In this document: piece after piece, positions 1 to 3,000 of the stretch
Position numbering within the stretch: the stretch's first letter is position 1
How the letters are laid out: each line of letters starts with the position of its first letter
From: a virus
Lineage: Duplodnaviria > Heunggongvirae > Uroviricota > Caudoviricetes
Length of the DNA stretch: 9,053 bases
Reading direction: 5' to 3' (one strand)
Virus record (IMG/VR): IMGVR_UViG_2695420595_000001
Position numbers: made by a program

Positions 1-3000
1 CAAACGTCAGCGAGCTGGTTGATATGGTTTACGAGTATTGCCGGAAGCGAGGCCTGTATCCGGATGCGGAGTCTTATCCGTGGAAATCAAACGCGCACTA
101 CTGGCTGGTTACCAACCTGTATCAGAACATGCGGGCCAATGCGCTTACTGATGCGGAATTACGGCGCAAGGCTGCCGATGAACTGACCTGTATGACAGCG
201 CGAATTAACCGTGGTGAGACGATACCTGAACCAGTAAAACAACTTCCTGTTATGGGCGGTAGACCTCTAAATCGTGCACAGGCTCTGGCGAAGATCGCAG
301 AAATTAAAGCTAAGTTCGGACTGAAAGGAGCAAGTGTATGACGGGCAAAGAGGCAATTATTCATTACCTGGGGACGCATAATAGCTTCTGTGCGCCGGAC
401 GTTGCCGCGCTAACAGGCGCAACAGTAACCAGCATAAATCAGGCCGCGGCTAAAATGGCACGTGCAGGTCTTCTGGTTATCGAAGGTAAGGTCTGGCGAA
501 CGGTGTATTACCGGTTTGCTACCAGGGAAGAACGGGAAGGAAAGATGAGCACGAACCTGATTTTTAAGGAGTGTCGCCAGAGTGCCGCGATGAAACGGGT
601 ATTGGCGGTATATGGAGTTAAAAGATGACCATCTACATTACTGAGCTAATAACAGGCCTGCTGGTAATCGCAGGCCTTTTTATTTGGGGGAGAGGGAAGT
701 CATGAAAAAACTAACCTTTGAAATTCGATCTCCAGCACATCAGCAAAACGCTATTCACGCAGTACAGCAAATCCTTCCAGACCCAACCAAACCAATCGTA
801 GTAACCATTCAGGAACGCAACCGCAGCTTAGACCAAAACAGGAAGCTATGGGCCTGCTTAGGTGACGTCTCTCGTCAGGTTGAATGGCATGGTCGCTGGC
901 TGGATGCAGAAAGCTGGAAGTGTGTGTTTACCGCAGCATTAAAGCAGCAGGATGTTGTTCCTAACCTTGCCGGGAATGGCTTTGTGGTAATAGGCCAGTC
1001 AACCAGCAGGATGCGTGTAAACGAATTTGCGGAGCTATTAGAGCTTATACAGGCATTCGGTACAGAGCGTGGCGTTAAGTGGTCAGACGAAGCGCGACTG
1101 GCTCTCGAATGGAAAGCGCGATGGGGAGATCGGGCTGCATGACTATCAAATCAAATACGCCAGCACACGACAAGGACTGCTGGCAAACGCCGCTTTGGCT
1201 TTTTGATGCACTGGATATTGAGTTTGGATTCTGGCTGGATTCGGCAGCGAGCGACAAAAATGCTCTGTGTGCTCACTGGCTAACTGAGGCCGACGACGCG
1301 CTCAATTCTGAGTGGGTAAGCCACGGTGCAATCTGGAATAACCCACCGTACAGCAATATCAGGCCGTGGGTGGAAAAAGCTGCTGAGCAGTGCATACAAC
1401 AGCGACAGACGGTAGTTATGCTTGTGCCAGAGGATATGTCAGTCGGATGGTTCAGCAAGGCTCTGGAGAGTGTCGACGAAGTTCGCATTATCACTGATGG
1501 ACGGATTAATTTTATCGAACCATCGACAGGGCTGGAGAAGAAGGGAAACAGTAAAGGCTCCATGCTGCTGATTTGGCGACCGTTCATCAGTCCTCGACGG
1601 ATGTTTACTACCGTATCCAAAGCGGCATTGATGGCGATCGGGCAGGGCGTCAGGAGGGCGGCATGAGGCGACAGCGACGAAGTTTCACCGACATCATCTG
1701 CGAAAACTGCAAATACCTTCCAACGAAACGCTCCAGAAATAAACGCAAGCCAATCCCAAAAGAATCTGACGTAAAAACCTTCAANNNNNNNAAAGCTAAG
1801 TTCGGACTGAAAGGAGCAAGTCTATGACGGGCAAAGAAGCAATTATTCATTATCTGGAGACGCACAAGAGCTTCTGTGCGCCGGACGTTGCCGCGCTAAC
1901 AGGCGCAACAGTAACCAGCATAAATCAGGCCGCGGCTAAAATGGCACGTGCAGGTCTTCTGGTTATCGAAGGTAAGGTCTGGCGAACGGTGTATTACCGG
2001 TTTGCTACCAGGGAAGAACGGGAAGGAAAGATGAGCACGAACCTGATTTTTAAGGAGTGTCGCCAGAGTGCCGCGATGAAACGGGTATTGGCGGTATATG
2101 GAGTTAAAAGGTGACCATCTACATCACTGAGCTAATAACAGGCCTGCTGGTAATCGCAGGCCTTTTTATTTGGGGGAGAGTAAATCGTGGTTGAGTTGAT
2201 TTTTTCTGCATTGAGGATTCTCGGTGCTATGTGGATGGTGTCGACGTTCATTGCGGTTGTCGGAAGTTTTGTCCGGTTGGTAGGCGAAGGTAAAGACCTG
2301 GTGGGTGTGCTGTTCGGTAGCATTCTCCTGTGGGTGATTATCGGTGTTGCGCCTGTCGCTGTAGCAAAAATGGCGTGGCGTTTTGTGAGTTGAGGTGACA
2401 ATGAAGCAAATATACATGCTTCGCAACGAAGCAATCAGAAACAACGCCATAGACGCAATACTCTCACTTCCGATCGACGACAAGTCACCTCACGAAGTCC
2501 ACATTAAAGAACCAAAGCGGAGCAATCCTCAAAACCGCCTTATGTGGGCGTTATTGCAGGACGTATCACGTCAGGTGCTTTGGCATGGACAGAGACTTGC
2601 GCCGGAGGACTGGAAAGACCTGTTCACTGCCCTGTGGCTTAAGACCAAAAAACTGGAGCAACGAAGTGTGCCTGGTATCGATGGTGGCGTTGTCATGCTT
2701 GGCGTGCGTACCAGCAAAATGCGAAAGGCCAGCATGACTGAGCTTATCGAAATCATGTTTTGGTTCGGCTCAGAGCGCAACGTGCGGTGGAGTGATGACT
2801 CCCGGCGAGAGTATGAATGGTCACAACGAAAAGGTAGGGCTGCATGACTATCAAATCAAATACACCAGCACACGACAAGGACTGCTGGCAAACGCCGCTT
2901 TGGCTTTTTGATGCGCTGGATATTGAGTTTGGATTCTGGCTGGATTCAGCTGCGAGCGACAAAAATGCTCTGTGCGCTCACTGGCTAACTGAGGCCGACG

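Follow-up and report, generated by a model that had tools for sequence, protein, structure and literature searches.

A 9,053-base stretch of a caudovirus genome (IMG/VR record IMGVR_UViG_2695420595_000001), hereafter called the window, represents the early-right ('nin') region of lambda-like Escherichia coli prophages and contains two homologous stretches, referred to here as copy 1 and copy 2. Copy 2 carries a 68-codon open reading frame (ORF) at 2187-2393, located directly behind the intrinsic terminator tR2. We consider it likely that this ORF is a genuine nin-region gene that encodes an inner-membrane hairpin of the phage protein family phrog_1165 and that behaves as a delayed-early, optional cassette. 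The ORF starts with GTG, ends with a TGA stop codon at 2391-2393 and translates into MVELIFSALRILGAMWMVSTFIAVVGSFVRLVGEGKDLVGVLFGSILLWVIIGVAPVAVAKMAWRFVS; its delineation as a phrog_1165 member with a predicted two-helix membrane hairpin is based on the ORF listing, hidden Markov model (HMM) and tblastn searches, hydropathy and an AlphaFold2 model. Unless stated otherwise, all features described below are located on the plus strand, and coordinates refer to the window.

A catalogued phage family

The HMM of phrog_1165 matches the predicted protein over its full length (E 1.2e-34, residues 1-68 against profile positions 1-68 of 68), and this is the only significant PHROG match of the ORF. The first-pass annotation of the window had recognized no family, but the ORF corresponds to gp58 of phage HK022, gp58 of mEp213 and orf70 of Shiga toxin (Stx) 2-converting phage 86, all of which belong to phrog_1165. 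The depositors of these sequences, and of SPN9CC_0027, labeled them 'hypothetical protein', and the same name is given to the identical ORF (WP_000229809.1) by the Prokaryotic Genome Annotation Pipeline (PGAP). No match to the ORF was found in Pfam or NCBIfam, a sequence-profile search against the PDB returned nothing at E ≤ 10, and no paper on the phrog_1165 family or its function was found in the literature. The window ORF is an ordinary member of an already catalogued phage family to which no function has been assigned.

Using tblastn, the ORF was detected in 107 phage records of Escherichia and Salmonella lambdoid and P22-like phages, with amino acid (aa) identities from 95% down to 41%. 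The Stx2a-converting phages are the closest (~95%), followed by HK630 and HK75 (91%), HK022 (88%), a group consisting of HK620, mEp213 and H-19B (~55%) and the Salmonella P22-like phages (41-44%). The gene is optional, as these 107 records compare with 411 that match the surrounding region. A match is present in 539 of the 5,426 complete E. coli genomes searched (~10%), and at least 1,000 contigs carry the exact 68-aa protein. HK022 gp58, mEp213 gp58, Stx2-86 orf70, SPN9CC_0027 and WP_000229809.1 share with the window ORF the full-length HMM match, an identity of 44-100%, the length of 68 codons and the position of first gene after tR2. The window prophage differs from most of these relatives in that ninB, and not a phrog_343 gene, lies directly behind the ORF.

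Outside this set, the family is narrow. Among 1.84 billion representative proteins, only a few relatives of 63-68 aa with 31-39% identity and the same motif were found, after fragments and three low-complexity hits had been set aside. Two distant relatives (P0134 and P0135) match phrog_1165 and are encoded after replication genes and before nin genes in operons of the lambdoid type; at two distant loci (L090 and L091), the gene lies behind O/DnaC-like genes and ahead of NinX/NinF. At the DNA level, nucleotides (nt) 145-207 of the ORF are the only stretch that blastn finds in common with the second of the two allele groups described below. A scan of genome contigs yielded five loci only, two from Escherichia and three from metagenome-assembled genome (MAG) records. 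A near-identical gene (79-90% aa identity) occurs on short MAG contigs labeled Cellvibrionaceae, Bacillota and Collinsella (L094, L095 and L096), which are probably mis-binned enterobacterial phage contigs.

Conservation of the reading frame

A total of 89 loci was fetched for comparison. The frame is intact in 85 of them, with exactly 68 codons and no insertions or deletions (indels). The first-pass annotation had reasoned that a lack of conservation, or stop codons in related prophages, would point to a chance ORF; instead, the ORF is conserved and open in these relatives, and the comparative evidence indicates that the 68-codon frame is a genuine conserved gene. The four exceptions comprise phage H-19B, with an in-frame stop at codon 15, Salmonella phage 146851_sal5, with a C-terminal frameshift, and two IMG/VR contigs (L027 and L031) with a 2-nt deletion at codons 6-7. 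The disrupted copies, found at 1495-1698 of L007 (H-19B), at 1501-1815 of L008 and on L027 and L031, are either occasional pseudogenes or sequencing errors.

Two main allele groups can be distinguished, which share 57-62% DNA identity without a single indel. The ratio of nonsynonymous to synonymous substitution rates (dN/dS, Nei-Gojobori) between both groups is 0.20-0.35, at a dS above 1 where silent sites are saturated. When all six frames are compared, the corresponding ratio of nonsynonymous to synonymous polymorphism (pN/pS) is lowest in frame +1, while frame -1 is near-neutral and the long antisense frame -2 is interrupted by stops in the alleles of HK620, SPN9CC and mEp213. Two antisense ORFs (2132-2434 and 2166-2483, minus strand) were rejected as genes, since frame -2 contains stops in the other allele group and both frames show a higher pN/pS.

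Alternatively, the stretch between tR2 and ninB could be a non-coding spacer or a recombination scar in which composition alone happens to keep 68 codons open. The GTG start and the lack of annotation in some records (H-19B, HK620) fit such an origin, as do the antisense frames -1 and -2, which are mostly open as well, so that composition alone can keep frames open here. Nevertheless, this explanation is contradicted by the conservation data and we regard it as extremely improbable: the exact length is kept at the low nucleotide identity between the allele groups, dN/dS is well below 1 and lowest in this very frame, the relatives at 31-39% identity share length, motif and position, a PHROG family exists, the AlphaFold2 model is confident, and both the Shine-Dalgarno site and its spacing are conserved.

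Predicted membrane topology

The two hydrophobic helices noticed in the first-pass annotation are borne out by hydropathy and by AlphaFold2. The protein has a grand average of hydropathy (GRAVY) of 1.5 with two hydrophobic segments at approximately residues 4-29 and 38-60, and Wimley-White profiles with 19-residue windows show two minima of -8 to -9 kcal/mol. AlphaFold2, supplied with an alignment of 15 sequences, models a helical hairpin with helices at residues 2-33 and 38-67 (mean predicted local distance difference test score, pLDDT, of 93.4). We expect the protein to insert as two transmembrane helices joined by a polar turn of 4-8 residues.

The first hydrophobic helix (codons 4-29, 2196-2273) lies within the modeled helix 2-33, has windows of -5 to -9 kcal/mol and contains R10 and the invariant W16. 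It is followed by the polar turn RLVGEGKD (codons 30-37, 2274-2297), in which V32, G35 and D37 are nearly invariant. The second hydrophobic helix and its juxtamembrane tail (codons 38-68, 2298-2390) form the most conserved part of the protein, with F43, G44, W49, V50, G53, P56 and an AKxAW motif (K61, A63, W64) as conserved residues. Across the 15-sequence alignment (A2), W16, W49, G53, K61 and W64 are invariant, and V32, G35, D37, F43, G44, V50, I52, P56, V57 and A63 are near-invariant. The window protein has every signature residue of the family, including the pattern F-G ... W-V-x-I-G-x-x-P-V-x-x-A-K-x-A-W.

The distribution of lysine and arginine (three at the termini versus two in the loop or turn) weakly favours a predicted orientation in which both ends are in the cytoplasm. 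A Foldseek search of the model against BFVD returned non-significant, generic helical hairpins only (best E 0.75), a two-helix hairpin being uninformative in such a comparison.

Genomic position and expression

The ORF is preceded by ren (1824-2114), which encodes a 96-aa protein matching the Ren-like exclusion protein family phrog_142 (E 2.9e-42) and which is annotated by PGAP as 'protein ren' in an identical prophage. Between ren and the ORF lies tR2 (2140-2173), identified by a terminator scan and RNA folding as an 8-bp GC-rich stem (2140-2163) followed by TTTTTATTT. It is annotated as tR2 in the HK620 record and has its equivalent in copy 1 at 654-687. The Shine-Dalgarno-like sequence GGGGGAGAG (2172-2180) is located 6 nt before the GTG, and this ribosome-binding site ahead of the 68-aa ORF is the one that serves ninB in lambda-type prophages.

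This arrangement is highly conserved. The tR2 motif is found just upstream in 87 of the 89 loci, and the distance from the end of tR2/GGGGGAGAG to the start codon is 6 nt in 85 of 89; a 4-nt spacing in L027 and L031 arises because the 2-nt frameshift moved the inferred start. One of the remaining two loci is cut off at its 5' end. In the other, an IMG/VR contig (L021, 1-120), unrelated sequence takes the place of the left tR2 arm at the transition …GGTGTCTGGAAATATAGGGGCAAATCCA / GTAATCGCAGGCC…, which suggests a rearrangement or insertion breakpoint within the terminator.

The upstream neighbour of this slot is either ren or a DnaB-type helicase gene, and at least three classes of ninB allele follow downstream across the 89 loci, at 8 to 961 nt from the ORF. 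Conserved synteny with the particular ninB allele of the window, which the first-pass annotation had proposed to look for, was consequently not found, as the ORF is tied to tR2/GGGGGAGAG instead. In the Salmonella alleles, the ATG is preceded by GGGGGAGAGGGAAGCATG, which is almost the same as the leader before ninB in copy 1; the gene therefore fills the exact slot of first cistron after tR2.

In a lysogen, the pR operon is shut off by the repressor. A consensus scan for sigma-70-like sites found none on the plus strand in 1793-3700, and the guanine-cytosine (GC) content of the ORF (~0.48-0.50) is like that of the neighbouring phage genes. Because the ORF is the first cistron behind tR2, overlaps the upstream ninA frame (see below) and showed no promoter-like site of its own, it is likely an N-dependent, delayed-early gene and not a moron expressed in the lysogen. 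By analogy with the lambda operon, a delayed-early, N-dependent accessory gene of the nin region is the most likely identity. The gene would join the translationally linked chain of cistrons in the early-right operon and pR transcripts would reach it only if RNA polymerase modified by N passes tR2. Its product would then appear as a delayed-early protein during lytic growth or after induction, and remain silent in the repressed lysogen. Interlinked nin cistrons are a known pattern (Kroger and Hobom 1982, as cited in PMC8022706).

Mosaic exchange and the two prophages of the window

Pairwise alignment shows that both copies are near-identical through ren, tR2 and GGGGGAGAG, up to position 694 in copy 1 and 2180 in copy 2. 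Past GGGGGAGAG, copy 1 continues with GGAAGTCATG directly into ninB (ATG at 702) with no ORF between, whereas copy 2 continues with TAAATC-GTG into the 68-aa ORF, followed by the ninB ATG at 2401, 7 nt after the ORF stop. The ORF listing and the copy alignment thus agree with the first-pass annotation on the coordinates, GTG start and 68-aa length of the ORF, on the order tR2-ORF-ninB in copy 2 only, and on a diverged ninB behind it where the ribosome-binding site of copy 1 leads straight into ninB.

The ninB of copy 2 (2401-2847) is a second allele (Pfam NinB, E 7e-49), and that of copy 1 (702-1142), which stands directly behind tR2/GGGGGAGAG, is the lambda-type allele; both match Pfam NinB and the two proteins share 46% aa identity. 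Identity between the copies returns at approximately 2837, where ninB stops and the dam methylase gene starts. The left mosaic junction accordingly lies at 2180/2181, at the end of GGGGGAGAG, and the right junction at approximately 2836/2837. The alignment indicates that the difference between the copies is a mosaic exchange of a block consisting of the ORF and a ninB allele (2181-2836 versus 695-1132). As the ninB alleles also differ and the sequences become alike again only at the ninB stop, a clean insertion before the same gene does not describe it. The earlier description of an accessory insertion is therefore retained insofar as the gene is an optional occupant of the slot between tR2 and ninB, and is revised insofar as a different ninB allele was swapped along with it. 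Absence from copy 1, at least three ninB classes behind the gene and exchange at gene boundaries all characterize it as an optional mosaic cassette.

A run of seven undetermined bases (NNNNNNN, 1786-1792, no strand) marks the boundary between the stretches 1-1785 and 1793-9053, the homologous parts being 1-1785 and 1793-3489. Stretch 1 comprises the end of P, ren (338-628), tR2, ninB (702-1142), a Dam-type methylase gene and the start of ninE. In stretch 2, the order is ren (1824-2114), tR2, the 68-codon ORF (2187-2393), the second ninB allele (2401-2847), the methylase gene and ninE, followed by an AT-rich segment with a 590-aa ORF on the minus strand, an HNH endonuclease gene, ninG, a Ser/Thr phosphatase gene and Q. 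No matches were found in Rfam and tRNA scans of the whole window.

In closed genomes such as that of E. coli AMSHJX01, stretch 2 is contiguous inside one prophage at 1.786 Mb (99.9% identity), and stretch 1 is located in another prophage at 3.36 Mb on the opposite strand. Since the halves map to two prophages 1.57 Mb apart, there is no tandem duplication. The first-pass annotation had spoken of a first and a second copy; comparison with closed genomes indicates that they are homologous parts of different prophages, and that the join at the N run arose artificially, through assembly or scaffolding at a repeat. Two possible annotation errors are averted in this way: reading the window halves as a tandem duplication, and confusing the 68-aa gene with NinA.

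The neighbouring ninA frame

A separate frame of 27 codons (2111-2194; VTIYITELITGLLVIAGLFIWGRVNRG) runs across tR2 directly upstream. It opens with a GTG that shares bases with the ren stop (GTGA) and closes with a TGA 8 nt into the 68-aa ORF. The records of HK620 and SPN9CC name this frame ninA, and in Salmonella phage SPN9CC the 8-nt overlap is also present, although its homologue of the 68-aa protein is only 44% identical. In the two copies the ninA frame is hydrophobic and 26-27 aa long (MTIYITELITGLLVIAGLFIWGR...), and that of copy 1 (625-705) shows an ATGA overlap with the ren stop. In both copies, the ninA start overlaps the ren stop, the ninA stop overlaps the start of the next cistron, and the frame is read through the tR2 hairpin. 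If ninA is translated, it could place a ribosome on the terminator hairpin and couple translation to read-through of tR2.

Several tblastn matches of the 68-aa ORF carry the label NinA. We rejected this name for the ORF, as it belongs to the neighbouring 27-aa frame, with which the ORF shares no sequence. NinA of P22, HK620 and lambda-like phages resembles the 68-aa protein in being hydrophobic and adjoins it in the same cistron chain, but it is encoded by a frame of 26-27 codons running from the upstream stop across tR2, which does not describe the 68-aa ORF. The two frames are distinct, with that of ninA (2111-2194) upstream and only 8 nt in common.

Possible functions of the predicted membrane hairpin

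Phage growth does not depend on the 68-aa gene, as it is missing from lambda and most lambdoid phages. We tentatively propose that its small product is embedded in the membrane and there binds or modulates another inner-membrane protein, of either the host or the phage. The contact surface might be formed by the conserved second helix (F43-G44, W49, G53, P56) together with the juxtamembrane AKxAW(R) tail, and in most relatives the protein may act jointly with a soluble phrog_343 protein. The latter is a small, soluble protein with a W-Q-A-S-R-A-x-I-E-I-E motif. A phrog_343-type gene is located downstream in 53 of 88 loci, immediately next to the ORF in 47 of these 53, and also in both distant loci examined. 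Examples are found at 1722-2039 of L005 (HK022 gp59), 1722-2093 of L006, 1937-2443 of L003, 1287-1592 of L090 and 4189-4452 of L091. Proteins of the HK022 gp59 type stay below the threshold of Pfam PF26207, though they fall in the same phrog_343 as proteins that reach it. In the window, phrog_343 is absent and ninB is directly next, so a joint function is not obligatory.

On a more general level, phrog_1165 might constitute a class of delayed-early inner-membrane effectors in lambdoid phages that are switched on once N antitermination passes tR2. Such effectors would bind a host inner-membrane protein via the W-V-x-x-G-x-x-P / A-K-x-A-W surface, close the cell to superinfection or re-tune the membrane in the course of lytic growth, and in many phages might serve as membrane anchor of a two-gene module with the soluble phrog_343 protein. 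Targets could include a DNA-entry channel, FtsH or a transporter. We put this forward as a speculative proposal that is more doubtful than not by a wide measure.

Still less probable, in our estimation, is a moron-type superinfection-exclusion or membrane defence factor expressed from the prophage, for example one that blocks DNA entry like HK97 gp15 or P22 SieA. Exclusion was also the kind of role the first-pass annotation had in mind. Several known exclusion proteins are small membrane proteins, and the 68-aa product is predicted by hydropathy and AlphaFold2 to be a small inner-membrane protein from an optional cassette in a variable slot. T4 Imm, HK97 gp15 and P22 SieA resemble it as small or membrane-embedded accessory proteins at the inner membrane, but no sequence similarity to them was detected, and none of the PADLOC families matched at E ≤ 1. 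Classical morons have their own promoter and terminator. For the 68-aa gene, in contrast, no promoter-like site of its own was found, and its start lies ~14 nt past the terminator T-tract (2173), too close for a promoter to fit in between. Moreover, its frame overlaps that of ninA and forms part of the pR operon, which is repressed in lysogens, and its GC content matches that of its neighbours, unlike the moron-like ORF at 4054-5826. None of the hallmarks looked for, namely a defence-family match, a promoter-like site or an atypical composition, turned up. HK97 gp15 and P22 SieA are prophage-expressed; the 68-aa gene is located behind tR2 in a repressed operon. T4 Imm is likewise an early product of the lytic cycle, and a lytic-phase version of this kind would fit the operon position; by analogy with T4 Imm, a lytic-phase exclusion role is possible.

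Even lower ranks a membrane permeabiliser, that is a holin- or pinholin-like protein or small toxin which oligomerises via its glycine-containing second helix, depolarises the membrane and so acts in lysis timing or abortive infection; we judge this improbable. The resemblance lies in the ~68 residues and two transmembrane helices of class II holins and pinholin S21-68, which we take to have the same size and general topology as the 68-aa protein. Small-residue motifs are present in the second helix (G40xxxG44 and G53xxP56), and a mycobacteriophage holin (E 3.7) is among the non-significant Foldseek hairpin matches. Against this, neither Pfam nor PHROGs gives a match to a holin family, the gene lies in the early operon upstream of Q and far from the lysis cassette, and a separate class II holin is encoded by this prophage behind Q. 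The long charged C-terminal tail is missing, the protein having a short tail with two positive charges. In addition, an early hole-former would kill the cell before assembly, while the gene is stably kept in ~10% of E. coli genomes. A type I toxin of the Hok/TisB type (a single helix of less than 60 aa with a cis-antisense RNA) was rejected, as the protein has two helices and 68 aa and the window has no Rfam match.

Several observations weigh against the interpretation of the ORF as a conserved, delayed-early membrane hairpin gene. The orientation is uncertain because the positive-inside count is nearly balanced (3 versus 2). The consensus promoter scan is crude, so that it could miss a weak promoter or one not of the sigma-70 type, and tR2 may be partly read through in lysogens. 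Loss of the gene is tolerated, as 4 of 89 loci carry a stop or frameshift. The reduction in dN/dS is no more than moderate, values obtained within alleles are noisy (0.2-1.2), and the excess of variable sites at third positions is modest (41/30/51). The phrog_343 partner is missing in the window and in ~40% of loci, which weakens an obligate two-gene model. Finally, function, topology and timing are all deduced, because the literature search found no experiment on any family member.

As an annotation, the ORF is routine: databases list it as a hypothetical gene, roughly a tenth of complete E. coli genomes and many Stx2a-converting phages carry it, and the sequence holds nothing surprising to a specialist of lambdoid phages. 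Its modest value is that it is among the commonest lambdoid genes still uncharacterised, is very small and easy to test, and sits at a defined point of regulation, being the first cistron that N antitermination at tR2 releases. If a function were demonstrated, be it lytic exclusion, modulation of a host membrane protein or partnership with phrog_343, this would close a gap in the otherwise well-studied nin region and might bear on the biology of Stx phages.

Other features of the window

Between ninE and the HNH gene, the segment 3550-6300 is AT-rich, with a GC content of 0.32-0.38 compared to ~0.50 in its flanks. It contains the 590-aa ORF (4054-5826, minus strand), which has a full-length match to phrog_9230 (function not assigned), is a PGAP hypothetical protein and has no Pfam or PADLOC match. 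This ORF resembles a genuine moron, or a cargo gene gained by horizontal transfer, and stands out more than the 68-aa ORF does. Just upstream of ninG, and overlapping it, is a gene for an endonuclease with HNH_3 and AP2 domains (6377-6943), which looks like a homing endonuclease; its comparison with PADLOC gave a weak, non-significant match to a ZorE-like HNH protein. The intergenic AT-rich region also includes a perfect hexanucleotide tandem repeat (TATTTC x 6.8, 6143-6183, score 82), which is placed 5' of both divergent genes, the 590-aa ORF and the HNH gene, and could be a phase-variable or regulatory tract.

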